From assembly GCA_965219535.1 (NCBI GenBank), contig CBDCNV010000002.1, positions 2,154,981 to 2,218,980 of the forward strand: DNA of 64,000 nt, written 5' to 3'. Below the pieces are notes generated by a model. That model made no database searches. It saw only the letters and a program-made list of their open reading frames with translations, and was not told the DNA's origin. The first letter of the stretch is position 1. The number at the start of each line of letters is the position of its first letter. This DNA is from Opitutales bacterium. Lineage in GTDB: Bacteria > Verrucomicrobiota > Verrucomicrobiia > Opitutales > PNEW01. Below are positions 14,155 through 59,666 of the stretch, piece by piece. A program made the translations under genes and the position numbers.

Positions 14155-14217
14155 AAAACAAAAGTAAAAGGAGCAGCAGCCAATAAGCTTATAAATGATG
14201 GAGCTTTGTCTTCGTTT

Positions 14218-14416
14218 GTCATTGCGAGGAGCAACGCGACGCGGCAATCCAGGCAAATATTCAATGTGTTTACGAAAGCAAGTCTTCGTTAAGATTCACG
14301 AAAAAATGTAAATGAAAATGATATAGCGCTAGCATATTTAATGAGAAATATAGGAGATCGGTTAATTCAATATTCCTGGATTGCCGCGGTCGGCTTATAA
14401 CCTTCCTCGCAATGAC
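14218..14416. repeat. inverted pair of gtcattgcgagg...gcaatccagg arms enclosing an AT-rich core
   Basis: Left arm 14218-14253 and right arm 14375-14416 (cctggattgcc...cctcgcaatgac) belong to the same arm family as the GIY-YIG element at 59215. Confidence 0.8.
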
Positions 14417-14432
14417 AAACTAGGACGATGTC

Positions 14433-15382: not shown

Positions 15383-15752
15383 GTCATTGCGAAAGAGGCG
15401 CAGCCGACTGCGGCTACCGAGCGCAGCGACATCTTCCATTCCAGGAGGGCGACAAAACGCTTTCGACATTCCCCTGGATCGCCACGGCTGAACAGCAGCC
15501 TCGCAATGACAAGACGAGAATTATTCTATGCGTGTTTTTCTGCCGGGCCTGGCCAGCGGGTCTCGCAATGACAAAGTAATGAACAGGAAGCGTGTTTTAT
15601 ATATCCTCTAATTGATTACCCTTTATTGTCATTGCGAGGAGTGAAGCGACGAAGCAATCCAGGGGGTTGACAATACGCATCAGGCATCTCCCTGGAATGG
15701 AAGGTGTCGCTCCGCGGCTGCGGGATTCGGTAGCGTCATCACCAACTCGCAA
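15383..15752. repeat. cluster of at least five arms of the gtcattgcgagg / ctaccgag...cgacatcttcc family
   Basis: Arms at 15383-15445 (+), 15473-15510 (-), about 15553-15572 (-, partial), 15628-15663 (+) and 15691-15752 (-). Confidence 0.8.
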
Positions 15753-18692: not shown

Positions 18693-18944
18693 TTTTTATA
18701 AGTAATTTTATATTATAGCCTTATAAATATTTAGTTTTTCGTAGTTATGCCATACTGACAATAAACTGACAATAGACACGCCAATATCCAAGGATAACGT
18801 AGACTGAAATTTATTACTTTTCCCCTGATAATTTAGAGGGGCGGGGGGGTATTAAAATACACGTCTCCTCTCAATCGATTATCCATTAACCTGTATGCAG
18901 CGGAGGTGATTTTTCCGCGAGGGAACACAATACACCTTGAAGGA

Positions 18945-21155
18945 TTATTCAATCGTTACCTCATCAACCTCGACTGTAATGTCATTACCATCTTCGTTTG
19001 CGAAGGTAGCATTGATGCTCCTTGTGGGTTGAGGTGTGTTGTCCGATTTAAAATTGTTCTGCGTAATCAGTCGATCAAAGCCTCGTGTTGTCGATCCACT
19101 TTCCGCGACCACGATTGATGCTCCATTTGTCTGCGATAGGTCCCCACCGGTGATCCGCAATCCGGGGTTGCCGGCGGGCACAGTAAATGATCCCGTTCCG
19201 AATAAGAGGTGCGGAACCGCATCGCCACTCGCATCGATGTCACCTACCGTTAAGCGTACCGCGATGGGAACACCTCTAGCATCCACACCGACCTTGCCCG
19301 TGCTTCCCGAAAAAACAGTGTTCGACAGCTGTACCCCTCCCATTCCTGTGGAATTGACGACTTCCACGAGGGTCACGTCCGCTTGCGCGTCATAGACCTG
19401 TCCCTCGGGGAAGAGGGCCTGGTTAAACGCGTTGATCCTTCCCACAGTGAAGATACTGAAGAAAGTATTGGCGTCCGCTCCGTCGATGACCACGCTCGGT
19501 TTGCCCGTCACGTACTCAACCTGCTGGTTGTAGCGTGGGGGTATGGCCGGGGGGAGGAAGGTGGCTGGGTCCAGGGTTACGGTAAAGGTGCCATTACCTG
19601 AAAATTCTACCTGCACGATGTCCTCGTTTTCGTCCATGAAGGAAACGCGCGTGATCTGTCCCGGTTTGGCCTGGAGTTGAACGGACTCTCCGGTTAAGAG
19701 GATTTGATCAAATACATTTCCATTCGCGTGCTGAATGTTTTCACCGGCGATATCGCCCGAGCCGTCGAGGACGAGGGGCACGGCGGGAGCTGCCACGGTG
19801 ATGACCGCGGTGTCGCTGTCAGCGGTTCCGTCCGGGTTGCTTACCTGCACCCAGAAGTTTGTGCTCGCGGTGAGAGTACTGGTGGTAAAAGTACTGCCGG
19901 TGGCGCCTGCGATGGGACTCGCAGTGTCGCCGCTGTTGCCTTCATACCATTGGTAGCTCAAGTCATCGCCGCTGGCGGCGATGGTTAAGCTTGCTGAAGC
20001 GCCGGACTCGATCTCCTGGCTCTCGGGCTGGGTAGTGATGGAGGGCCCTTGCGCGGGAGGGGATATATCTTCAAAACCCGGAGCGCCGATCGGGGTAAAA
20101 CCAAAGTCGTCGATTACAGTAACGCTAAAATTTGGATTTACATTTACATCATCGGCTAAAGTAATTCTGGCAATACCGCCTACCGCACCCAATTCACTGG
20201 CTACGAATTTAACCTGAGGTGCAAGGGATCCGGGTCGAATGTCCGGCGGCAGATTTTCAATCGTTCTGAGCAAGTTATCTTCGGTATCAAATACCTGAAC
20301 GGTCCCGTCACTTTCGCCTGCCGCGGTTCTCGCTTCCACGGCGGCATAAAATTGAACCTTCGCTGCCGGTGTTTCGAAAGTGATCGTTCCGGTTCCACCA
20401 TTAAACATTTTCCAGTGCCATGCACCTGAGCGGTGCTGCGTGATACCGATATCTGACGTTGTTGCGACAAAGGCATTAGAAAAGGTGGCGGTAATAGGAG
20501 AGGTCCCAAGAGTAATGATATCCACTCCTACGGGTAAATCATCAAATGTGGTCCACACGGTATTATTCCTTGGCTCATCTGCTACGGTAAAACCAAGATC
20601 ATCGATGACTAATTTACCCGTGATATTAAAGAACTTAATTTCAGCGATACCGTCATAGTAGGTGGTTACGGTTTCCGGTATATATGCATAATCATCAGGA
20701 TAAGCGAGTATCCGCTGCAGAGGAGGATTGCTATCGGGGTTGATACTGGTCGGTAAGCCAGTTACTACATATTGCTCTAATAAGTATAAAAGATCACGTC
20801 CACTATCGTTTGTCGTAACACCTCGGGTCTCGATCTTACCCCCGCCCGTGGTCTCGGCGACATAGAATTGGATTTCAGCAATCCCCTGTGACCTGAAGAT
20901 TTTCCCCTCCTGACCGGGCTCCAGGGTTATCGCTTTGCTTCCCGAATGTAAAAGCGAAGGATCCTCTATAGTCTCCACCTTGAAGCCGATCAATTTCAAC
21001 CGGTTGGGCTCTTCGCCGATGAAAAATTCACCTTCCCCGCTAACGTTCTCAAAATCCGTGAAGCTCTCCAGATCTTGAGGAAGGGCCGACAGGCGCACCG
21101 GTAAATAGAGCAAGAGAAACAGAATTAGAATTATTTTTATGGGTTTTCGTTTCAT
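18945..21155 (-). CDS. secreted Ig-like domain protein with conserved C-terminal domain of unknown function (paralog A)
   Basis: Signal peptide MKRKPIKIILILFLLLYLPVRLSA from the ATG at 21155. Ig-like module ITTQPESQEIESGASASLTIAASGDDLSYQWYEGNSG. About 330 C-terminal residues are nearly identical to the gene at 36303. Confidence 0.8.
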   Translation of the reverse strand: MKRKPIKIILILFLLLYLPVRLSALPQDLESFTDFENVSGEGEFFIGEEPNRLKLIGFKVETIEDPSLLHSGSKAITLEPGQEGKIFRSQGIAEIQFYVAETTGGGKIETRGVTTNDSGRDLLYLLEQYVVTGLPTSINPDSNPPLQRILAYPDDYAYIPETVTTYYDGIAEIKFFNITGKLVIDDLGFTVADEPRNNTVWTTFDDLPVGVDIITLGTSPITATFSNAFVATTSDIGITQHRSGAWHWKMFNGGTGTITFETPAAKVQFYAAVEARTAAGESDGTVQVFDTEDNLLRTIENLPPDIRPGSLAPQVKFVASELGAVGGIARITLADDVNVNPNFSVTVIDDFGFTPIGAPGFEDISPPAQGPSITTQPESQEIESGASASLTIAASGDDLSYQWYEGNSGDTASPIAGATGSTFTTSTLTASTNFWVQVSNPDGTADSDTAVITVAAPAVPLVLDGSGDIAGENIQHANGNVFDQILLTGESVQLQAKPGQITRVSFMDENEDIVQVEFSGNGTFTVTLDPATFLPPAIPPRYNQQVEYVTGKPSVVIDGADANTFFSIFTVGRINAFNQALFPEGQVYDAQADVTLVEVVNSTGMGGVQLSNTVFSGSTGKVGVDARGVPIAVRLTVGDIDASGDAVPHLLFGTGSFTVPAGNPGLRITGGDLSQTNGASIVVAESGSTTRGFDRLITQNNFKSDNTPQPTRSINATFANEDGNDITVEVDEVTIE

Positions 21156-21238
21156 GCTGTTATAACGATAAGAGCGGTTGCCAAAGATGTAGCGAGGAAT
21201 TTTGCGCTCATGAAGCATTACTTGTCGGGTTAGTTTAG

Positions 21239-25976: not shown

Positions 25977-26164
25977 TTAGAGCATCGAGATCCGGGACAT
26001 AGCAGGTCTGGATATTCCATTTCTTCACCGTTTTAGCAATAGGAATTCTCTCAGAGGATATAGCCCTCTGAGGTTCCCAGGAAACATATTCGCCTTTCCG
26101 AACCCACGTGAAACCATCTGAAGCGAATTTAAATATCGTTGGTATAAATGGTCACGACCAGACT

Positions 26165-27082
26165 CTATTCGTCAGCCGGGGTATCTCGAAAGGGATCAGA
26201 AAATGCTTTTACGGTTTGTAAGGTCGAATCGTCCGGGATTAGCGTGCCCTGGGCGATCTCTGTAAATCTCCACTTATGCAGCCAATCTATCCACCGCTGC
26301 CGCCTGGGATTCTGCTCAGGATTATCCAGCCATTCAAGCGGGTATTCCGGAGACGGAGAATCAAAAGTTTTTTTGGCTATCGATGTCCTGATTTCATTAG
26401 TGATATGCAAATATTCCGTTAGAGCCCTTCCTTCTTCTGCGTTCTTTGGATTTCTAGAATAAACGATGGAAAACGTGCGCCGATCCGTCGATCCGCCACA
26501 ACTGGCATGCCATACATGGGAATCAAAGATAAATCCATCACCCGGTTCTACGTCGCAAATATAGGCTGGTCCTTCTTTAATACGTTCTGTTCCAAGGCGG
26601 TTCTCTGCATCATCATAACCCGTGAGACCGTCATACTTTGCTATTTCTTTATGAAAGGCTTTCTTATGGGATCCGGGAATCACCCTCAAAGCGCCGCTAT
26701 CCCCATCAACCGGTTGGAGGTAGAAGAGGAATTTTAGATCGTGCATATGAAAATTATAATCATCGGCATGCCAGGCAGTATCATTGACGTAGCTGATCGA
26801 GTTGCAGGATATTCCAACGCAGTCTTCCCCCATTATCTGTTCTGCGATGCTTACAATGCGCGGGTCTTCGATCAAGGTGGCGAGAAGGGGCGTCTGCGCA
26901 CCCAAGTTGGTCCAGCTTATAACATGGGGAGGCGTGTCTTCAGGTTCTGTGTAGCGCCGGGTGGTTTCCAGCTTAGACTTGAATTCCTCCTTGAAGGTTT
27001 CAATTTCACCCGGGCTGAATAATCCTCGCAGGGGAAGGAAACCGAAAGTATTGAAGTACGTGAGTTGATGCGCGGTAAGCAT
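26165..27082 (-). CDS. phytanoyl-CoA dioxygenase (PhyH) family Fe(II)/2-oxoglutarate oxygenase
   Basis: N-terminal LTAHQLTYFNTFGFLPLRGLF, HxD (WHADD), RVIPGSH, and a distal His (VWHAS). Confidence 0.85.
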   Translation of the reverse strand: MLTAHQLTYFNTFGFLPLRGLFSPGEIETFKEEFKSKLETTRRYTEPEDTPPHVISWTNLGAQTPLLATLIEDPRIVSIAEQIMGEDCVGISCNSISYVNDTAWHADDYNFHMHDLKFLFYLQPVDGDSGALRVIPGSHKKAFHKEIAKYDGLTGYDDAENRLGTERIKEGPAYICDVEPGDGFIFDSHVWHASCGGSTDRRTFSIVYSRNPKNAEEGRALTEYLHITNEIRTSIAKKTFDSPSPEYPLEWLDNPEQNPRRQRWIDWLHKWRFTEIAQGTLIPDDSTLQTVKAFSDPFRDTPADE

Positions 27083-27324
27083 TTTTTACTTTAATTCACT
27101 GTTAATTATACCATATTTCGCAATTTATAAAGGGAAAGTCTATTAATTGATATTCCCCATATCAAAACCATAAGGCTAATAACTCCCAATAATATTGCAA
27201 CGATTTTCAATTTAAAGCCACACCGGCCAAGACTGATACGCAGAAAATTCTGGAAGCCCATCGCAAGTCTCAAGAGTCAGAAACTGCCGACCAGGGTGTT
27301 CACTGAATTATAATTATGGGGGGG

Positions 27325-28287
27325 TCACCTCAGTGGATTTACTAGATTGCGTGGGGATAAACCTTTCGCTAAGCGATCAATATTCTCCGCGGCGGCTTTA
27401 GCGCGTCGATGCCACGTCCCCTGTGTGAATCCAGCGACATGCGGCGTAGTTAAAACGTTATCTAACTTTAAAAGGGGATGTTCCGGGGCCAAAGGTTCCT
27501 CGGCGTATGCGTCGATACCCGCACCTTTAATGCGACCGCTTGTCAGGGCCTCAATCAGTGCATCATTGTCAACGATTTCTCCTCGCGCAACATTGATCAG
27601 GACCGCCTTTTCCTTCATTACGCTGAAAGCGTGCTGGTCAATCAGGTGTCGCGTTTGCTTGGTTAAAGGAACGTGCACAGAAAGGAAATCAGACTCGACC
27701 AGAATTTTTTCAAGATCTTCGGGGTATCCAAGAAAGGCGAGATGAAATTCGTCGAGTTCATGCTGCGGAATATCTCTATTATCAATGGCTATGATCCGTA
27801 ATCCCAGGGCCCGGGCCCGTCTTGCCAATTCTTTCGCGCTTGCTCCGAAGCCGACCAATCCCAAAGTCTTTCCTTCGAGCTCATCGTTCATCACCCGATG
27901 CCAGTCTTTGGTGCGATTGTGATTGAGGTTTTTTGCGAAATAGAGAATCATAAGAAGCGCATGCTCTGCAAGAGGGACAGCGGTTAGGGGCCCCGGAGAG
28001 TGGGTGAGGAGCAGACCTTTACCCAAGATATATTCCGTGTCGACATGGTCGAGACCGTTGGTCGTAACCTGCCATAGTTTAACTTCAGCTGCTTTAGCCG
28101 CGTCCATCATCTCATGGGTTCCTATGGCCCCTCCCGTATCGATGACTACCTCAATCTCCTTAAACTGATCAGCAGCCGGTTTGTTTGGATCGTAAATTTC
28201 AATGGGATAACGACCGTCAATAAATTCAACCAGATAACGATAAGAAAAATGTAACCTGTCTGCGTTGCGAAGAAAAAGAACTTTCAT
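27325..28287 (-). CDS. D-isomer-specific 2-hydroxyacid dehydrogenase
   Basis: NAD-binding GLVGFGASAKELARRA, then VARGEIVD and the TPHVAG catalytic His motif. Confidence 0.85.
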   Translation of the reverse strand: MKVLFLRNADRLHFSYRYLVEFIDGRYPIEIYDPNKPAADQFKEIEVVIDTGGAIGTHEMMDAAKAAEVKLWQVTTNGLDHVDTEYILGKGLLLTHSPGPLTAVPLAEHALLMILYFAKNLNHNRTKDWHRVMNDELEGKTLGLVGFGASAKELARRARALGLRIIAIDNRDIPQHELDEFHLAFLGYPEDLEKILVESDFLSVHVPLTKQTRHLIDQHAFSVMKEKAVLINVARGEIVDNDALIEALTSGRIKGAGIDAYAEEPLAPEHPLLKLDNVLTTPHVAGFTQGTWHRRAKAAAENIDRLAKGLSPRNLVNPLR

Positions 28288-28469
28288 GGCTGATAAAGAG
28301 ACTTAATGATAAAATAGTTATGGAGAAGGTGCAAATTTTTCCTGGGCATTATTTATCTTCAATGAGAATAAAAACAGGATGAGGGAAAAGCTCATACATA
28401 AAACCGCCGCAGCGTCATAGCTGTCAGTGTATTTATGGGAGAGACTGAAGACGATTGTCCCAAGTGCAG

Positions 28470-28534
28470 CTAAAACCATTAACACCCGGTAACTCTCTCA
28501 CTTAATAATTGGTACGAAAAACGGGGTCCAATCA
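28470..28534 (-). mobile_element. solo terminal fragment of the IS3-family element found at 38004
   Basis: ctaaaaccattaacacccggtaactctctcacttaataattggtacgaaaaacggggtccaatca is the reverse complement of 38004-38066, differing by a 2-nt insertion and one substitution. Confidence 0.8.
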
Positions 28535-29051: not shown

Positions 29052-30290
29052 ATGCATTATGTATTAAATTACTTTCGACTCCTTATATTCATCGTGGGTA
29101 TTCTATTAGGATTAGGTATGGGCAGGAATGACGAGTCTAAGTCAGAGAATAATAGAGTAAATCCTTCTAATGCAGAGGACGATCTTACACCGGTCCACGC
29201 AAAAGTTCCCGGTGTCGTTATTAATTATTCTCCCGCGTCTACGAGAGAATTCATTGGTTCTCCCAGCATCGCAGTTCTTCCCAACGGCCATTATGTAGCA
29301 TCGCACGACTTCTTTTACCCACGCGAAAGGATGACCCGAACGAAGCGCCCGACAATCGTTATCTACGGGTCGGAAGACAGAGGTGAAACCTGGAAACAAC
29401 TATCCAGATTCAAAGGGCAGTTCTGGTCGACCTTATTTGTTTATGAAGAAGCGCTCTATCTTTTTGGCGCCAGTAGGGAATATGGTTACGTGGTAATCCA
29501 AAAATCTGAGAACGGAGGGAAAACTTGGACGAAGCCTAAAGATGGAAAGAGCGGTCTTATCAAAGACGATGCTAAACACCAAAGCACACCGTTCCCCCCT
29601 GTGATCCACGACGGAAGAATCTGGAAGGCATTTGAGCAGGTGGGGGATTTAAAGATGTCCCGTAAAGATATATTTGATAATAAAGGGGATTGGAGATCGT
29701 TCGTCATGTCCGCGCCCGTCGATGCGAACTTGCTCAACGCTGAGAATTGGCGTGTAAGCGAACTACTCCATCATGAGCAGCCAAATTTCATGTGGCTTGA
29801 AGGAAACATCGTAGTAACGCCTGAAGGCAGGTTAATAAACATCTTACGCATGAATGATCTTAAATGGGCCAGCTACGATAAGGCGGCGGTCGTGCACGTT
29901 TCGGATGACGGCATGGAGCTCTCGTTCGATCCCGAGACGGACATTATTAACTTCCCGGGTGGCGGAGCAAAATTCACACTTCATTATGATGAGAAAAGCA
30001 ATCGCTACTGGTCCATCGGCAATAAACAAACAAACCCCAAGGCGCGACGCAACGTCCTCGTGCTCACCTCTTCGTCCGATTTGAAGAACTGGAAAATAGA
30101 GAAGACTCTCCTGCAACATCACGATGAAGAAAAACACGCCTGGCAGTACGTAGACTGGTTGTTTGATGATGATGATATCATCGCAGTTTCAAGAACAGCT
30201 TATGACGATGGTCTCGGTGGCGCCTACAACCATCATGACGCAAACTATCTTACTTTTCATCGCATAAAAAACTTCCGTGAGAATGAATAA
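29052..30290 (+). CDS. BNR/Asp-box beta-propeller protein (sialidase-like), secreted
   Basis: 412 aa with a signal/anchor segment and Asp boxes SEDRGETW and SENGGKTW. Confidence 0.8.
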   Translation: MHYVLNYFRLLIFIVGILLGLGMGRNDESKSENNRVNPSNAEDDLTPVHAKVPGVVINYSPASTREFIGSPSIAVLPNGHYVASHDFFYPRERMTRTKRPTIVIYGSEDRGETWKQLSRFKGQFWSTLFVYEEALYLFGASREYGYVVIQKSENGGKTWTKPKDGKSGLIKDDAKHQSTPFPPVIHDGRIWKAFEQVGDLKMSRKDIFDNKGDWRSFVMSAPVDANLLNAENWRVSELLHHEQPNFMWLEGNIVVTPEGRLINILRMNDLKWASYDKAAVVHVSDDGMELSFDPETDIINFPGGGAKFTLHYDEKSNRYWSIGNKQTNPKARRNVLVLTSSSDLKNWKIEKTLLQHHDEEKHAWQYVDWLFDDDDIIAVSRTAYDDGLGGAYNHHDANYLTFHRIKNFRENE

Positions 30291-30570
30291 GATTCATCAC
30301 GAAACTGAAAATAGATCACTAATCAATAGGATTTGCCCTATAGAAGAATTAAAACATGACAGACTGCAGAGCAAATCGCTGAAGCCGAACGAAGAGCCGA
30401 GGATTGGCTGAGTAAGCACCAGTGATCGGACCCCGTTATTCGAACCAGTTTAAGTGAGAGAAGTACCAAGTGTTAACGGATTATTGACCTGTCCCCATAA
30501 AACTGGACCAGCAAAGATTTAGTCTGGCATGGGTGGAAAACCTAATAAAAAATAGGAGAAAGAACCACCC

Positions 30571-30871
30571 ATGAAAAGCAAAGGTTCACGAGGCATAGCC
30601 GAGAAGGCCTGACAAACGATATAATAAAGAACAAATCATCTATGCCCTAAGGCAGGTAGAAGGCGGACGAAGGATTGCCGAAGTGTGCCGAGAGTTAGGC
30701 GTGAGCGAACAGACCTACCACCGATGGAAGGGTAAATACGCGGGCATGGGAATGAGCGAATTAAGACGGCTGAAGCAACTCGATGAAGAGAACGCCAGTT
30801 TGAAGAAGCTGGTAGCTGATCTGAGCCTGGACAAGCACATGCTGCAGGAAGTAATCGCAAAAAAATTATAA
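30571..30871 (+). pseudogene. IS3-family transposase OrfA (HTH), interrupted after codon 2 by a 37-nt segment
   Basis: A Shine-Dalgarno sequence (aggag) and the ATG at 30571 lead to a TGA at 30610. The conserved frame KRYNKEQIIYALRQVEGG... starts at 30614 with no start codon of its own. Confidence 0.7.
30859..30865 (+). promoter_or_regulatory. A7 programmed -1 frameshift site between OrfA and OrfB
   Basis: In gcAAAAAAAtta the -1 frame continues as KKIIKPVRKKVIADWL into OrfB. Confidence 0.75.
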
Positions 30872-30876
30872 AGCCT

Positions 30877-31743
30877 GTGCGCAAGAAGGTGATTGCTGAC
30901 TGGTTAGTGGAAGCTTATGAGGTGAGCAAACGCCGCGCGTGCAGGCTGATGAAGTTGTATTGGTCGAGTTATAACTACCAGCCGGTGAAGAAGGACGAAC
31001 GTGCGCTGATCATGCGCATCCGTGACCTCGCCGCAGCGCGCGTGCGCTACGGGTATCGGCGAATCACGGTGTTATTAAAGCGGGAAGGCTGGACGGTAGG
31101 AAAGAAACGCGTTTATCGTATCTACAAGGCCGAAGGGCTGGAAGTGCGCACGAAGAAACGAAAGAAGCGTGCCGCGCAAAGACGGGTCTCACTGCCCGCG
31201 GCTTCAGCAGCCCAGGAGCGCTGGTCGATGGACTTTATGAGCGATCGGCTGACCAACGGCCGCCCCTTCCGCATACTCACCGTTGTCGATCAATACACCC
31301 GAGCTTGCCCACTGCTTTTGGTCGATACGTCCATCGGTGGGCACAAAGTCGCTGCAGCACTTATGAAAGCCGCTGCAGGAATCGGTCTTCCCCAAACCAT
31401 TACCGTCGATAATGGGCCCGAGTTTTCCGGCAAAGTACTGGATGAATGGGCTTATGGCCATGACATCAAGCTGGATTTTATCCGGCCAGGTAAACCCGTA
31501 GAGAATGGTTATATTGAGAGTTTCAATGGACGCTTACGAGATGAACTTCTTAACACCGAGCTATTTTGTACGCTCGCTGAAGCGAAAGAAAAACTTGAAG
31601 CCTGGCGGCTTGATTATAATACTCAAAGACCACACAGTTCTCTGGGCTATCGGCCTCCGGCCGAATACGCCCAGAGAGCCATGTCTAAGAAAATTAAAAC
31701 CCATACCACCCTGCCGGAACTAACACTTGCTCTGGTACAGTAA
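30877..31743 (+). CDS. IS3-family transposase OrfB (DDE/rve integrase core)
   Basis: WSMDF...DNGPEF...NGYIESFNGRLRDE catalytic-core motifs. Confidence 0.9.
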   Translation: MRKKVIADWLVEAYEVSKRRACRLMKLYWSSYNYQPVKKDERALIMRIRDLAAARVRYGYRRITVLLKREGWTVGKKRVYRIYKAEGLEVRTKKRKKRAAQRRVSLPAASAAQERWSMDFMSDRLTNGRPFRILTVVDQYTRACPLLLVDTSIGGHKVAAALMKAAAGIGLPQTITVDNGPEFSGKVLDEWAYGHDIKLDFIRPGKPVENGYIESFNGRLRDELLNTELFCTLAEAKEKLEAWRLDYNTQRPHSSLGYRPPAEYAQRAMSKKIKTHTTLPELTLALVQ

Positions 31744-31811
31744 ACGGGAGCAGGTCATTATCCCGATAACCTTTCACTGTAAATGATACGATTTTTGGGG
31801 TCACTCCACAG

Positions 31812-36066: not shown

Positions 36067-36210
36067 AACCTATACCTCAGGGTCAAACGTAGAATTTAAA
36101 TATACTCTGTAACGGGTCTCAGTAGTCGATTGATTCATGATGCATGCTGCAGTATTCAGGATGTCATGGGGTAGGGGGTCGGATTGCAGAATGTACGAAA
36201 CCGACATTCC

Positions 36211-36271
36211 CCTGGAGTGGAAGATGTCGCTGCGCTCGGTAGCCACGGCTGACAAGCAGCCTAGCGATGAC
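36211..36271 (-). repeat. solo long arm of the gtcattgcgagg family
   Basis: cctggagtggaagatgtcgctgcgctcggtagccacggctgacaagcagcctagcgatgac. Confidence 0.75.
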
Positions 36272-36302
36272 AAGGTATTTCAATCGAAAAACGGCAATCG
36301 TA

Positions 36303-38003
36303 TCATTCTATTGTCACTTCTTCAGTTGTCACCGCGATATCATCCCCATCCTCGTTGGAGAAGGTAGCGTCAATGCTCAGGGTCGGTTGAGGCGTTTCGT
36401 CAGACTTGAAATTGTTCTGTGTGATCAGAGTCTCAAATCCCGGTGTTGTCGATCCACTCTCCGCCACGACGATCGAAGCGCCATTCGTCTGCAACAGGTC
36501 TCCACCCGTGATGCGCAAACCGGGGTTGCCCGCCGGTACCGTGAAGGACCCGTTTCCGAACAGCAGGTGCGGCACCGCATCGCCGTCGGCGTCGATGTCG
36601 CCCACCGTTAATCGTACCGCGATCGGTACGCCACGCGCATCGAAGCCGACCTTGCCGGTGCTTCCACTGAACACGGCATTCGATAACTGTACCCCTCCCA
36701 GGCCCGTGGAGTTGACTACTTCCACGAGGGCCACATCGGCCTGGGCGTCATAGACCTGTCCTTCGGGGAACAGCGCCTGGTTAAAGGCGTTGATCCTGCC
36801 CACCGTGAAAATGCTGAAGAAGGTATTGGCGTCAGCTCCATCGATGACCACACTCGGCTTGCCCGTCACATACTCAACGGCCTGGTTGTAGCGTGGAGGG
36901 ACAGCCGGGGGCAGGAAGGTGGCCGGGTCCAGGGTTACGGTAAAGGTACCGTTACCTGAGAACTCTACCTGCACAATGTCCTCGTTTTCGTCCATGAAGG
37001 AAACACGGGTGATCTGTCCCGGTTTGGCCTGGAGTTGGACGGACTCTCCGGTGAGTAGTATCTGGTCGAAGACGTTGCCGTTGGCATGCTGAATGTCTTC
37101 ACCCGCGATATCGCCCGAGCCGTCGAGGACGAGGGGCACTGAAGGTGCTGCTACCGTGACGACGGCCGTATCGCTGTTGGCGCTCCCTCCGGCGTTCGTT
37201 ACCTGCACCCAGAAATTCGTGCTCGCGGTGAGTGCACCCGTGGTCAAGGTATTCGACGTAGCTCCGGCGATGGGATGATTAGCAGAGTCGCCGCTATTGC
37301 CTTCATACCACTGGTAAGTGAGATCGTCGCCGCTGGCTTCAACTGACAAAACGACAGCGGTCCCCGACTGCACTTCCTGGTTCGTGGGTTGGGTAGTGAT
37401 AGAGGGAGCATCCGCGGGTGGCGGTGCTGAGGTATCAGTGCCCGGTGCGCCAATAGGAGTAAAACCGAAATCATCGAAGACTGTTGCGCTTCTCGCTATA
37501 TTTACATTGGGATTGTCCTTAACAATCAGTCTGCCAATGCCGCCTGGAGCTCCCAACTCTACCGTATTGATTGTAGTTTGACGGGGTTTGAATAAAGCAT
37601 CAAGAGCCCCAGCACTTTCCAAGTCCGAAAAGGTAGCAAGAAGGTTATCATTAGTATCGTAAACTTCGATTGTTCCGTCGGGGTCAGTAGTGCCAGTCAA
37701 AACAATGGCTGCGGCGAAAACATCGATCTCAAATGCCGGGGTTTCAAAAGTGACCGTGAAGCTTTCTCCGTTAGCAATCCCATAGGATTGAAGTCCCGAT
37801 CGCGTTGGATTATTTGCGGCAGATAAAATCGAGCCCCCAACAAAAGTAGCTCTAATAGGTGATTCCCCAACAATAATGGGTGCCGTTATACCTGCACCCA
37901 CACTAAAATCCTCAAAAGTAGTGAATACGGTGTTATTGGACGGTCTTTTCGTTATGGTGAAACCCAGATCGTCAAGGGAGAATTTTCCTGAAACATTTTT
38001 GAT
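36303..38003 (-). pseudogene. Ig-like secreted protein paralog B, C-terminal part (separated from its 5' end by an IS)
   Basis: The frame is open up to the IS boundary at 38003 (IKNVSGKFSLDDLGFTI...). It is collinear with paralog A from about residue 187 onward. Confidence 0.8.
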
Positions 38004-38030
38004 TGATCGGACCCCGTTTTTCGTACCAAT

Positions 38031-38954
38031 TTAAGTGAGAGAGTTACCGGGTGTTAATGGTTTTAGGATTGATGTATATGAGAGATCTTGGCGAAGTGAG
38101 GGCGTAGCCCGAACGCGGCCAAGATCGGAAAGGAATCTGACAAACTCTTGTGGGCTTTTGAAGCCTAAACGACTGTGGGGATGTTCATGGTTATAGGTCT
38201 GACGCCATTGTTCGATTACCACTTGCGCTTCAGCCACGCTGAGTAACACTTCACGGTTCAAACACTCATCGCGTAAGCGGTTGTGAAACGACTCGATGAA
38301 ACCGTTTTGCCAGGGACTGCCCGGATCGATATAGATCGCCTTTATGTTATTACCGGACAACCACTGCTGCACTTGATGAGCAATGAACTCACTGCCGTTG
38401 TCACTACGGATATAGCTGGGAGGTCCCTCCTCTTCAATGGCCTCGCTAAGCACAGAGAGGACATCGGTTGAGGTGAGTTGACGAGCGACCCGGATATCCA
38501 GGCATTTACGCGTATATTCATCGATTAGAGTCATCATCTTTAATGGACCGCCGTTGTCTGTACGATCATGGACAAAGTCCCAGGACCAAACGTGATTGCG
38601 ACCCTTTGCTTTAGTAGGTGACCCCGTAGAGACTCCTTGACGGTGTCTGCCCTTTTTCGGGGGCTTTACCTGCAGCCCTTCTGAACGTCGTACCGCCTGG
38701 ACAAACTTCCTGCTTGTTGTCCAGCCTTCCTTTACCAGCAAGGCACGGATGCGCCGGTAACCGTAGCGGGGATGTTTCCAGGACAAGCTCACAATCCGCT
38801 CGACCAACCGCTGAGCTTTCTCACTGGCCTGTTTGGGCCGGTAACTGAACGTTGACCAACTCAGGCTGAGATAAGCACAAGCCCTCCGCAACGAGCACAA
38901 CCCTTTCTCAGCCGCAGCTTTTACTACTCGTTTCTTCTGCTTTGGGCTCACCAT
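38031..38954 (-). CDS. IS3-family transposase OrfB (DDE/rve core)
   Basis: WSWDF...SDNGSEF...NGFIESFHNRLRDE. The stop lies inside the terminal repeat. Confidence 0.9.
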   Translation of the reverse strand: MVSPKQKKRVVKAAAEKGLCSLRRACAYLSLSWSTFSYRPKQASEKAQRLVERIVSLSWKHPRYGYRRIRALLVKEGWTTSRKFVQAVRRSEGLQVKPPKKGRHRQGVSTGSPTKAKGRNHVWSWDFVHDRTDNGGPLKMMTLIDEYTRKCLDIRVARQLTSTDVLSVLSEAIEEEGPPSYIRSDNGSEFIAHQVQQWLSGNNIKAIYIDPGSPWQNGFIESFHNRLRDECLNREVLLSVAEAQVVIEQWRQTYNHEHPHSRLGFKSPQEFVRFLSDLGRVRATPSLRQDLSYTSILKPLTPGNSLT

Positions 38955-39241
38955 TTTTTTGACAGCGTTTCCTCCATTACCTGATTCTTGAGCATTTGAT
39001 CTGCGAGCAGCTTCTTCAGCTCGGTATGTCAGGCCTTCTCGCTTGCGCTCGTGAATTCTTTTTCCAGCTCTTTAAATCGCTTCGCATCGGCAAGTTCTAA
39101 ATTGCCATATTTTTTACGCCAGCGATAGAAAGTCTGTTCGCTCAGGTTGTTTCCACGGCAGATTTCCTGTACCGTTTTACCGGTATCGGCTTGCCGCAAT
39201 ATTGTTATAATCTGTTCTGTTGTGTATCTTTTTCTTTTCAT
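38948..39241 (-). pseudogene. IS3-family transposase OrfA with an in-frame TGA inside an extra 27-nt segment
   Basis: MKRKRYTTEQIITILRQ...RFKELEKE[FTSASEKA-TGA]HTELKKLLADQMLKNQVMEETLSKKW. The A7 slippery site is at 38954-38960. Confidence 0.7.
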
Positions 39242-39306
39242 TGAGGTTATCTGTTTATCCCGATAACCTCTCTCTGTAAATGATACGATTTTTGGGGGTC
39301 ACTCCA

Positions 39307-39541
39307 CGAGGGTTATCGCTTTGGTTCCCGAGTGTAAGAGCGCTGGATCTTCTAAAGTTTCTACTGTGAAACCGACTAATTTTACCCTGTTTGGCTCTTC
39401 CCCAATGAAAAATTCACCTTCCCCGCTGATATCCTCAAAATCCGTGAATACCTCGAGGTCTTGCGGTAGAGCTGAGAGCAGAAACGGTAAGATTAATGCA
39501 CTTAACAAGAGCAAAAAAGAAATGTGATTTCTAAAGTACAT
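39307..39541 (-). pseudogene. Ig-like secreted protein paralog B, N-terminal fragment
   Basis: Signal peptide plus LPQDLEVFTDFEDISGEGEFFIGEEPNRVKLVGFTVETLEDPALLHSGTKAITL, closely matching residues 25-97 of paralog A. Confidence 0.8.
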
Positions 39542-39606
39542 ATAAGATTCCTCAATGAATAAATTAAAGAGAAATCCGTTAGGGTCAAACGGGATTGAAC
39601 TTTCTT

Positions 39607-39853
39607 GTCATTGCGAGGAGCAACACGACGAAGCTACCGAGCGCAGCGACATCTTACACTCCAGGTGAATGTCTGTTGTATGAAGTAGGTCCCTTGGTGT
39701 TAGGATTAATTCTCAACCGATCGTATACTTAATTTTGAGACGAACCCTCATTGGATAGATTTGAGCGGAAATTGGTTTTCGTAGGCATAATGACTATTTG
39801 CCTGGAATGGAAGATGTCGCTGTGCTCGGTAGCCGCGCTTCGCTCGCAATGAC
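39607..39853 (+). repeat. gene-less derivative of the GIY-YIG element (two long arms plus last 13 codons)
   Basis: Arms at 39607-39665 and 39801-39853. 39743-39784 reads NPHWIDLSGNWFS-stop. Confidence 0.8.
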
Positions 39854-40010
39854 AAAAGGAATATTACGAAAATTAGTATTATTTATGATATCCGCTAGGA
39901 AAAATCGCTTCCTCCCACGAGTGATAAGGACCCACTCTCGGAAGCGTCTTTTCCACGAAACATATCACGGGATAACATACAAGGGCGAAGCCCGACATCT
40001 TCCAAATCAG

Positions 40011-49498: not shown

Positions 49499-49762
49499 TT
49501 ATCCTTATTATTTATATTTTCAGGTTTATAGCTGAATTACTTATTCAATTCCAGGGCCGTTGCCTCTACGGTGGTCGAATTCAAGGGTATTACTGATAGA
49601 TAGGAAATTAAAAGCGTGAATTTATATTTTCTAATACTAAATGCAAGCAAGTTGCCAAAAAATTCATGAAGAGGAGTTACCTATAAGTAAAAACGAAAAC
49701 TTCGATCAGAATAACTTTAACTACACAACAGCTATAAAGGTATAAATCTCTTCGTCTGAATT

Positions 49763-50031
49763 GTCATTGCGAGGGAGGCTATCAGCTGACCGCGGCTACC
49801 GAGTCCCGCAACTACGGGACGACATCTTCCATTCTAGGCGAATAGTCATTGTGCTTACTCTTACCAGTCACATGGTAAATCTTTCCAATGAAGGTTCGAC
49901 TTTTAATCAAAACATTACTCATCTGAGGATTAACCTTAACATCTGCGGGTCTACATAACGAAACAGACATCCCCCCGAGTGGAAGATGTCGCTGCGCTCG
50001 GTAGCTTCGTCGCTTTACTCCTCGCAATGAC
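49763..50031 (-). repeat. gene-less derivative of the GIY-YIG element (two long arms plus last ~11 codons, reverse orientation)
   Basis: Arms at 49763-49838 and 49975-50031. 49861-49896 (minus strand) reads NLHWKDLPCDW-stop. Confidence 0.8.
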
Positions 50032-50082
50032 AATTGTGACGATGACTATGATAACCGTGATCCACCCTTTTTATATTTTCTC

Positions 50083-59189: not shown

Positions 59190-59214
59190 AGTGTAATTGC
59201 ATCGCGCCCCTATT

Positions 59215-59639
59215 GTCATTGCGAGGAGCAACGCGACGCGGCAATCCAGAAATTTTGGATTAACCATTGCCACATATAAACCGATTTAATACATGTGCGC
59301 AATGTGTATTACGTTTACATCCTCACCAGTAAGCGTAATGGAACACTTTACACTGGTGTCACCTGTAGTTTATTTCGTCGCTTATGGGAACATAAAAATA
59401 AATTTAAGGAAGGGTTTACCAAGAAATACAATATACAAAGGCTGGTATATCACGAATCCTTTTATGATATTCAAAATGCTATCGTACGTGAAAAGCAAAT
59501 TAAAGCCGGATCGAGAAAAAAGAAGATTGCTTTAATTGAAGCAGAGAACCCCCATTGGAAAGATCTGAGCGGAGACTGGTATTCGTAAAACAATGACGAT
59601 TCGCCTGGATTGCTTCGTCGTGATGCTCCTCGCAATGAC
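59215..59639 (+). mobile_element. candidate GIY-YIG nuclease element: single gene bracketed by 35-bp inverted arms
   Basis: The left arm 59215-59249 and the reverse complement of the right arm 59604-59639 agree at 31 of 35 positions. The arm family is dispersed across the window. Confidence 0.6.
59295..59588 (+). CDS. GIY-YIG nuclease family protein (small UPF0213/COG2827-like)
   Basis: 97 codons with a GTG start. YVYILTSKRNGTLYTGVT...RRLWEH...E.AIVREKQIK are typical GIY-YIG motifs. Confidence 0.85.
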   Translation: MRNVYYVYILTSKRNGTLYTGVTCSLFRRLWEHKNKFKEGFTKKYNIQRLVYHESFYDIQNAIVREKQIKAGSRKKKIALIEAENPHWKDLSGDWYS

Positions 59640-59666
59640 AAATGGGGAGGCACGTGCCCTCCATTA

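Follow-up and report, generated by a model that had tools for sequence, protein, structure and literature searches.

How does an insertion sequence (IS) come to carry a transposase gene whose start codon leads into only 13 codons, while the conserved remainder of the gene lies in a different frame? The question is raised by IS-A, an IS3-family element at 30487–31757 (+) in a 64,000-nt stretch of an Opitutales bacterium genome (contig CBDCNV010000002.1 of assembly GCA_965219535.1, positions 2,154,981 to 2,218,980), referred to here as the window. The element is bounded by TGACCTG...CAGGTCA, and its target was duplicated as TTAT. A second, distantly related IS3-family element of the window, IS-B (~38004–39305, −), also has an interrupted OrfA. 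Both interrupting segments are probably copies of one very short dispersed repeat family specific to Opitutales (Verrucomicrobiota), here termed the mini-element. The likely explanation is a miniature mobile element, resembling repetitive extragenic palindromic (REP) sequences, which knocks out OrfA and is tolerated since its target is itself selfish DNA. The mini-element was apparently undescribed until now. Both elements display the features that define the IS3 family, namely an HTH_Tnp_1 OrfA, an rve OrfB in −1 phase, an A-rich slippery site and TG...CA ends, and their OrfB proteins score 222.9 and 239.5 bits against NF033516.

The start region of IS-A OrfA consists of a Shine-Dalgarno (SD) sequence (AGGAG, 30554–30558), an ATG at 30571, 13 codons (MKSKGSRGIAEKA) and a TGA at 30610–30612, which together define a residual 13-codon open reading frame (ORF) from the original ATG of OrfA to the TGA of the mini-element (30571–30612, +). 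The OrfA frame (KRYNKEQII...) is open from 30614, with a TAG at 30596 upstream and no start codon in between. This remainder encodes the HTH_Tnp_1 domain and extends to 30871 (+), with an A7 slippery run at 30859–30865, and is followed by an intact OrfB with an rve integrase core (30877–31743, +). The original prediction had described both the short ORF behind its SD sequence and the start-less frame, and each is confirmed in the sequence. It had also proposed a 37-nt segment at 30577–30613, removal of which would restore the N-terminus MKKRYNKEQII; this part had to be revised once empty-site relatives were aligned.

Relatives of IS-A and IS-B were collected via their OrfB proteins, hence the sampling is independent of the motif. 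Alignment against empty-site relatives (loci L101, L089, L082 and L086) delimits a 28-nt insert at 30585–30612 (+), composed of TTCACGAG GCATAGCC GAGAAGGCCTGA, which splits Gly codon 5 of IS-A OrfA between GG and its third base. The empty copy L101 (~94% nucleotide identity to IS-A) reads ATG AAA AGC AAA GGT AAA CGT TAT, while L089/L090 read ...GGA AAA CGT... and L082–L088 (~68% identity) read ...GGC AAA CG..., each being exactly 28 nt shorter than the window at this point. Removal of the 28 nt gives the N-terminus MKSKGKRYNKEQII, and the protein so restored matches P0241, a database protein, along its whole 90-residue length (100% identity). The insert shifts the frame of OrfA after codon 5 and its TGA ends the upstream ORF.

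In IS-B, OrfA (39241–38948, interrupted) and OrfB (38954–38031) are encoded on the minus strand. The mini-element copy is 27 nt long (39029–39055, −; TTCACGAG CGCAAGC GAGAAGGCCTGA) and sits at Asn codon 63 of OrfA, the conserved Asn of ELEKE-N-TELKK, with the codon now reading CAT. This insert keeps the frame but brings a TGA (39031–39029), through which OrfA ends at 70 aa, ahead of the leucine zipper. An intact 88-aa OrfA is present in eight copies from two genomes (L091–L098, 88–92% nucleotide identity to IS-B) and in the more distant L100. These empty relatives read ...GAA AAA GAA AAC ACC GAG... (ELEKENTELKK) and are missing exactly the 27 nt at 39029–39055, so the boundaries first proposed for this second copy were correct.

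The shared motif had been judged too similar to be chance in two otherwise dissimilar OrfA genes, and counting bears this out. Searched with a gap, TTCACGAG-N(5-14)-GAGAAGGCCTGA has exactly two matches in the window, whereas 100 shuffles give an expectation of 0.00. A centre of 7–8 nt separates the two arms, and a fuzzy search of the window gave no further or degenerate copies. The anatomy of the mini-element was derived from 87 distinct instances with 35 distinct centres. Its layout comprises TTCACGA, a 2–3 bp mini-hairpin (G(C)-loop-(G)C) and GAGAAGGCCTGA, with a length of 25–29 nt in these instances (25–30 nt as described for the family overall). The preceding base is G in 80/87, and the following bases are C in 82/87 and then A in 82/87, giving the ends G-TTCA... 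and ...CCTGA-CA. Watson-Crick pairing is found in 32/35 centres for pair 1 of the mini-hairpin and in 25/35 for pair 2, where C-G, G-C and T-A types all occur; covarying examples include GC-GAA-GC, GGC-ATA-GCC and GT-GAA-AC. No stable fold of the mini-element is predicted thermodynamically, the values being no better than those of shuffles (z −0.8 to +1.8).

The insertion rule can be read from the filled and empty alignments. Neither insert is accompanied by a target-site duplication, and the ends of the mini-element are not terminal inverted repeats. The pre-insertion target is R-A-A wherever it can be read, the insert either taking the place of the first A or coming after it, and in IS-B and two Ruficoccus IS3 elements a conserved Asn codon AAY has become CAY. 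From the sequence, it is as if one A had been replaced by the mini-element plus a C.

Beyond the window, a scan of one genome per species found at least 81 mini-element loci, and JGI metagenomes gave 19. Among the matches listed, all but ~4 chance-like ones from unrelated phyla belong to Opitutales, Opitutaceae, Ruficoccus, Pelagisphaera or Pelagicoccus; one matching metagenome-assembled genome is labelled Planctomycetota, yet its context is of Opitutales type. Dozens of copies are found in a single genome, that of Opitutales bacterium 685e4509. A scan of viral contigs returned one match, which is chance-like. Rfam searches at gathering and at permissive E-value thresholds gave no family at the motif, a comparison by eye with hammerhead, twister, k-turn and riboswitch structures found none that fits the conserved positions, and no description of the mini-element was found in the literature. 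Copies are mostly intergenic, often amid other simple repeats, and occur singly, as inverted doublets or in clusters, with some doublets imperfect through a degenerate partner. A search for non-IS genes split by the mini-element found only spurious ORFs, and most non-IS copies lie outside plausible genes.

Clean empty sites, together with identical variants in unrelated contexts within the lineage, indicate that the unit is, or recently was, mobile. Of the explanations offered in the original prediction, a very small mobile insertion is upheld by the empty sites with intact OrfA for both IS types and by dispersal over at least 81 plus 19 loci, while a common scar was discarded on account of the precise ends and the large family. 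The motif does recur elsewhere, other copies of both IS types are either filled or cleanly empty at these positions, and the segment is not part of a normal OrfA.

Two further contexts follow the same insertion rule. In L050, from a related genome, a copy interrupts the T-loop in a duplicated 3' fragment of tRNA-Met, where GGGTTC-A-AATCCC has become GGGTTC-[27 nt]-C-AATCCC, and its 27-mer is identical to the IS-B copy. At this locus (L050:1230-1445, minus) the octamer TTCACGAG, equal to the 5' arm of the mini-element, stands directly downstream of tRNA-Met and again downstream of the duplicated fragment. In L022 and its orthologues from several genera, a copy in the opposite orientation occupies the T-loop of a tRNA-Met-derived pseudo-tRNA. 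This pseudo-tRNA (L022:1239-1330; orthologues L007, L023, L103, L105, L111, L115 and L117) lies downstream of tRNA-Met and has an altered anticodon arm, and the mini-stem of the mini-element within it shows compensatory or wobble changes (GGC/GCC vs GGT/GCC). The arrangement is conserved between these genera; it could be a small RNA with a function, or else what is left of an old attachment site. An identity of the flanks as tRNA or tmRNA was rejected, as ARAGORN finds only the neighbouring true tRNAs; the flanks are tRNA-derived fragments bearing the insert.

The second context is Ruficoccus, in which two different IS3 OrfA genes are interrupted at the Asn codon that is also hit in IS-B, here by a 26-nt variant of that genome's own. 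One Ruficoccus IS3 element (L001:1206-2575, also L006 and L030) is 1370 bp long and present in three copies of 99.5–99.9% identity, with a diverged copy in L069 and no visible target duplications. Its OrfA also has a G-run frameshift, and its OrfB has a 38-nt insert ending in GGTAG (after WAWD) and a 25-nt insert (after PWHNG). Its 'DLFSC.HVALRAR' insert recurs in an unrelated IS of L054. As this element is multicopy despite the frameshift and the extra inserts, multicopy status does not imply autonomy.

In IS-A and IS-B alike, the unit inserted precisely, without target duplication, into an IS3 OrfA gene that had been intact before. The original start of IS-A OrfA now gives a 13-residue peptide, and the helix-turn-helix-bearing OrfA is left without a start codon. 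Under the favoured reading of a REP-like miniature mobile element, OrfA and the OrfAB transposase are presumably abolished or strongly reduced and both IS copies defective. Inserts in selfish IS genes would not be purged, which would account for their persistence, and intact IS-A copies in the same species could provide transposase or recombine with the filled ones. The mover may be guessed to be a trans-acting enzyme working on single-stranded hairpin DNA, perhaps an HUH/Y1 enzyme like the REP-associated tyrosine transposases (RAYTs) or those of IS200. Residual expression from filled copies or precise excision is possible.

Loss of expression is also suggested by two filled IS-A copies which apparently carry repair mutations. 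In L123, a G-to-T change within the mini-element makes an ATG (GAGAATGCCTGAC) in the OrfA frame (L123:575-750). In L124, the original ATG has become ACG and an upstream GTG gives a 113-aa ORF running through the mini-element (L124:440-620). Such new start codons are expected if the insert had abolished expression. Intact copies are very common, with more than 40 distinct intact 90-aa OrfA variants, 93–100% identical to the restored IS-A OrfA, on more than 100 contigs; one variant alone is on 13 contigs, the longest being a 5-Mb chromosome.

Several observations weigh against the favoured reading. Full-length filled IS-A copies at different loci keep both the OrfA remainder and OrfB intact, with an OrfB dN/dS of ~0.2 among them (0.27–0.37 in pairs with the truncated L046) and an OrfA pN/pS of 0.04–0.12. 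This purifying selection could mean that filled copies are still expressed. The empty L101 nests among filled IS-A copies with 85% bootstrap, which would fit precise excision too. Among the matches listed, the copies of the window species and of Ruficoccus are all in IS3 OrfA and all in sense orientation, a pattern that may call for more than tolerance. The analysis found no mobilising enzyme. A RAYT-like pseudogene in L004 is not generally adjacent to mini-element copies, and the IS200-type TnpA of the copy-rich genome was rejected because its distance to the copies varies and its end hairpins are unrelated.

The selection signal was down-weighted as a sign of filled-copy expression after intact copies and recombination were found in the same species. 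As intact IS-A OrfA is very common, purifying selection is explained by an active empty master lineage, and the signal is attributed to divergence in this lineage plus recombination. Evidence for the latter is found in flanks that do not match the history of the IS they surround: the flanks of L040 and L102 are 99.2% identical to the window, yet their IS-A differs by 4–7%, and L101 (empty) and L040 (filled) share a 537-nt flank of 100% identity with IS-A inverted between them. In L102 and L123 the 5' end of the insert is moreover a hybrid (AAAACGAG), for which conversion inside the ACG common to filled and empty copies accounts. Since filled and empty IS-A coexist and recombine within one species, trees of the IS are unreliable.

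The search for a mobilising enzyme near the copies gave little that recurs. Clustering of neighbouring ORFs produced no recurrent candidate, only an IS110 transposase, IS3 genes and the IS200-type TnpA, and the window ORFs tested include no RAYT gene. The degenerate RAYT-like ORF that adjoins the copy in L004 gives no match in Pfam, and L005 and L070 are the only other loci that have it. The IS200-type element of Opitutales bacterium 685e4509 is high-copy and nearly identical between loci (L002, L005, L018, L034, L062 and L065), inserts 3' of T(C/G)AAC and has the end hairpins CCCCGTAGC..GCGGGG and CCCCGACGC..GTCGGGG. An IS110-family transposase lies ~375 nt from a copy within an identical composite repeat (L004:3492-5287, L008:5090-6883 and six further 685e4509 loci). 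Either IS110 targets this composite repeat or the repeat is part of the non-coding end of IS110.

Could the ribosome instead make use of the insert? An exapted recoding signal, which is rather unlikely, would have ribosomes from ATG 30571 of IS-A shift +1 at GCC-UGA-C (30607–30613), giving MKSKGSRGIAEKA-DKRYNKEQII, while IS-B would rely on readthrough at UGA-C; the mini-element would then be a translational throttle. UGA is a weak stop when C comes next, and the UGA-C shift site of prfB and the UCC-UGA site of antizyme are known frameshift comparators. All IS-A inserts are 28 nt, so the zero frame ends at the TGA with OrfA in +1, a purine-rich SD-like GAGAAGG stands just upstream of GCC-UGA-C, and the ORFs of full-length filled copies remain intact, and under purifying selection, at several loci. 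However, GCC in the P-site re-pairs poorly after a +1 shift, and the SD-like run extends into the P-site codon rather than lying ~3 nt upstream. The IS-borne copies measure 26, 27 and 28 nt. In IS-A and IS-B their TGA can be read in the upstream frame, in the Ruficoccus IS it cannot, and downstream OrfA lies at +1 (IS-A), 0 (IS-B) and +2 (Ruficoccus) relative to the upstream frame. With these lengths no one rule of frameshifting or readthrough can hold for every IS-borne copy, and the 26- and 27-nt inserts of other IS3 genes would need different events. Readthrough in IS-B would add nine residues, break the heptad register and place His for the conserved Asn at the start of the leucine zipper. 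Intact IS-A copies also dominate, and the new start codons in filled copies suggest that expression had been lost. Scarcely credible is ribosomal bypassing, in which ribosomes would hop over the insert and resume in the OrfA frame as in T4 gene 60 or the mitochondrial byps. The insert is close to byps in size, AAA stands both before (30580–30582) and after (30614–30616) the IS-A insert, and GAA precedes the IS-B insert with GAG 6 nt after it. At the boundaries themselves the codons do not match (GGT before and TGA or GAC at the end in IS-A; GAA before and TGA at the end in IS-B), and the putative take-off is followed not by a stop but by TCA in IS-A and TTC in IS-B. L054 offers no in-frame landing (Glu) codon downstream, folding predicts no stable hairpin for take-off, most copies of the family are intergenic, and filled IS-A copies are a minority with compensatory start codons. 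The comparison with byps in the original prediction therefore gains no support, given the missing take-off/landing pair, the mostly intergenic copies, the three insert lengths, the dominance of intact copies and the new start codons.

At the DNA level, the insert could act as a reversible switch, with precise excision (leaving GGT or GGC) and re-insertion toggling the IS off when filled and on when empty. This is quite unlikely, although insertion is precise and without target duplication, like that of single-strand 'peel and paste' transposons, whose excision is likewise precise. The empty L101 (GGT AAA) falls within the filled copies at 85% bootstrap, its T could be the first base of the mini-element, and the hybrid 5' end of L102 and L123 can be read the same way. 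Yet recombination of IS-A between orthologous flanks of 99–100% identity, where the IS differs by 4–7% or is inverted, makes the tree unreliable; the third base of the Gly codon varies (C, T, A) among empty copies, as for synonymous drift, and conversion between filled and empty copies accounts for the hybrid end. Host-directed silencing, in which the mini-element would be delivered preferentially, in sense and with its stop, into IS3 transposase genes as a genome defence, is very unlikely. It would fit the listed matches in the window, in its species representative (L040, L046, L047 and L067) and in the Ruficoccus loci L001, L006, L030, L054 and L069, which are all sense inserts in IS3 OrfA, as well as the three IS lineages struck at one codon and the two further small inserts of the Ruficoccus IS. 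Copies in other genomes are nonetheless mostly intergenic or in tRNA-derived fragments, survival bias explains an enrichment in dispensable genes, and the purine-rich R-A-A context of the shared codon fits a simple target preference. A broader idea, doubtful but possible, is that the mini-element represents a new class of site-specific mobile DNA, ultra-small at 25–30 nt and below any known transposable unit in size. It would insert with no target duplication, taking the place of one A where the sequence is R-A-A, for instance in hairpin loops (tRNA T-loops) or purine-rich coding stretches, and be moved and perhaps precisely excised by a trans-acting enzyme, thereby acting as a reversible off switch in IS genes.

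Among known systems, the mini-element family is closest to REP/REPIN-type repeats, and in its insertion behaviour closest to single-strand IS200/IS605-like elements. REPs are defined as mainly extragenic sequences of 20–40 nt with a stem-loop palindrome of 5–13 bp and a GTAG or CGTC tag (PMC3733652). In Opitutus such repeats are abundant and some are intragenic; Opitutus terrae has GTAG-type REPs and is reported to have the most intragenic REPs (PMC3733652). Like REPs and REPINs, the mini-element is short, high-copy, lineage-specific and mostly extragenic, with occasional copies in ORFs, and the core CGAGCG(A/C)AGCGA is common to the mini-element and the GTAG-ended repeats of the window. It differs in having a stem of 2–3 bp rather than 5–13 bp, no stable predicted fold and no GTAG or CGTC tag, and ~20 nt of conserved single-stranded arms dominate it. 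No linked RAYT gene was found among the copy neighbourhoods and window ORFs tested, and precise empty and filled sites are documented. With IS200/IS605 elements and palindrome-associated transposable elements (PATEs) it shares the lack of target duplication, a fixed orientation to a short target, hairpin-containing ends and precise empty sites. These elements, however, need two different subterminal hairpins and at least ~100 nt, whereas the mini-element has one mini-hairpin; the ends and T(C/G)AAC target of the resident IS200-type element are unrelated to it. The mini-element thus lacks defining features of both groups, having no real palindrome, no GTAG/CGTC tag, one mini-hairpin and no linked transposase found.

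Other small elements fit less well. A MITE (a transposable element of miniature size with inverted repeats) is excluded by ends that are not inverted repeats and by the lack of target duplication. The byps of Magnusiomyces mitochondria are 27–55-nt non-coding mobile inserts in protein genes with a GC-cluster-like origin. Although the mini-element is likewise a short non-coding insert in protein-coding genes, as in T4 gene 60, it has no matched take-off/landing codons and no stop at take-off and is mostly intergenic, and in contrast to byps its host genes are dispensable and appear inactivated rather than rescued. Rickettsia palindromic elements (100–150 bp) are in-frame inserts in ORFs which are translated. 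They too are small repeats entering ORFs, but the mini-element is shorter, has a stop codon and often shifts the frame.

The surroundings of IS-A and IS-B show repeated rearrangement of the locus. IS-A is nested, with its TTAT duplication, in a ~110-bp deletion derivative (MITE-like) of the IS-B type, of which the left part lies at 30423–30486 (85% to 38004–38063) and the right part at 31758–31805 (95% to 39255–39297). The IS-A copies of L047, L067 and L046 likewise sit in IS-B-type ends, which suggests that IS-A prefers such ends as targets. A solo IS-B end is present at 28470–28534. In L040 and L102, from the same species (99.2% identity over window positions 26129–28487), position 28487 is joined directly to IS-A, and the 2-kb segment 28488–30483, which holds a BNR-repeat gene (29052–30290), is missing. 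This segment is therefore polymorphic as an indel, with remnants of the IS-B type at its borders.

A second, larger repeat family is found in the window at 39593–39855, 14204–14418, 15401–15662, 36199–36273, 49761–50041 and 59201–59647. It has terminal inverted repeats (TTGTCATTGCGAGGAGC...GCTACCGAGCGCAGCGACATCTTCC) and contains the core CGAGCG(A/C)AGCGA of the mini-element, including a GCGNAGC mini-hairpin, beside CTAC (the reverse complement of GTAG). In addition, 18944–21218 is paralogous to 36302–37901 and 39309–39490 at 75–82% identity, linking a 757-aa ORF to a 532-aa ORF with Ig-like domains and to a fragment beside IS-B. These links suggest duplicated genes of a surface-protein family that IS activity has disrupted.

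A tempting claim of byp-like bypassing in bacteria has been removed as unsupported. What the locus provides instead is a clean series of sites with and without the insert for a dispersed element of unusually small size, and a reproducible rule: the target is not duplicated, and one base is apparently replaced. For REP-like repeats, the mobility of which is mostly inferred, insertion polymorphisms as clear as these are rare, and they would allow a direct search for the mobilising enzyme. For annotation, truncated 'OrfA' calls of this kind are insertion artefacts, which bears on which IS copies count as active. The insertion sequences of Opitutales are themselves riddled with even smaller inserts.

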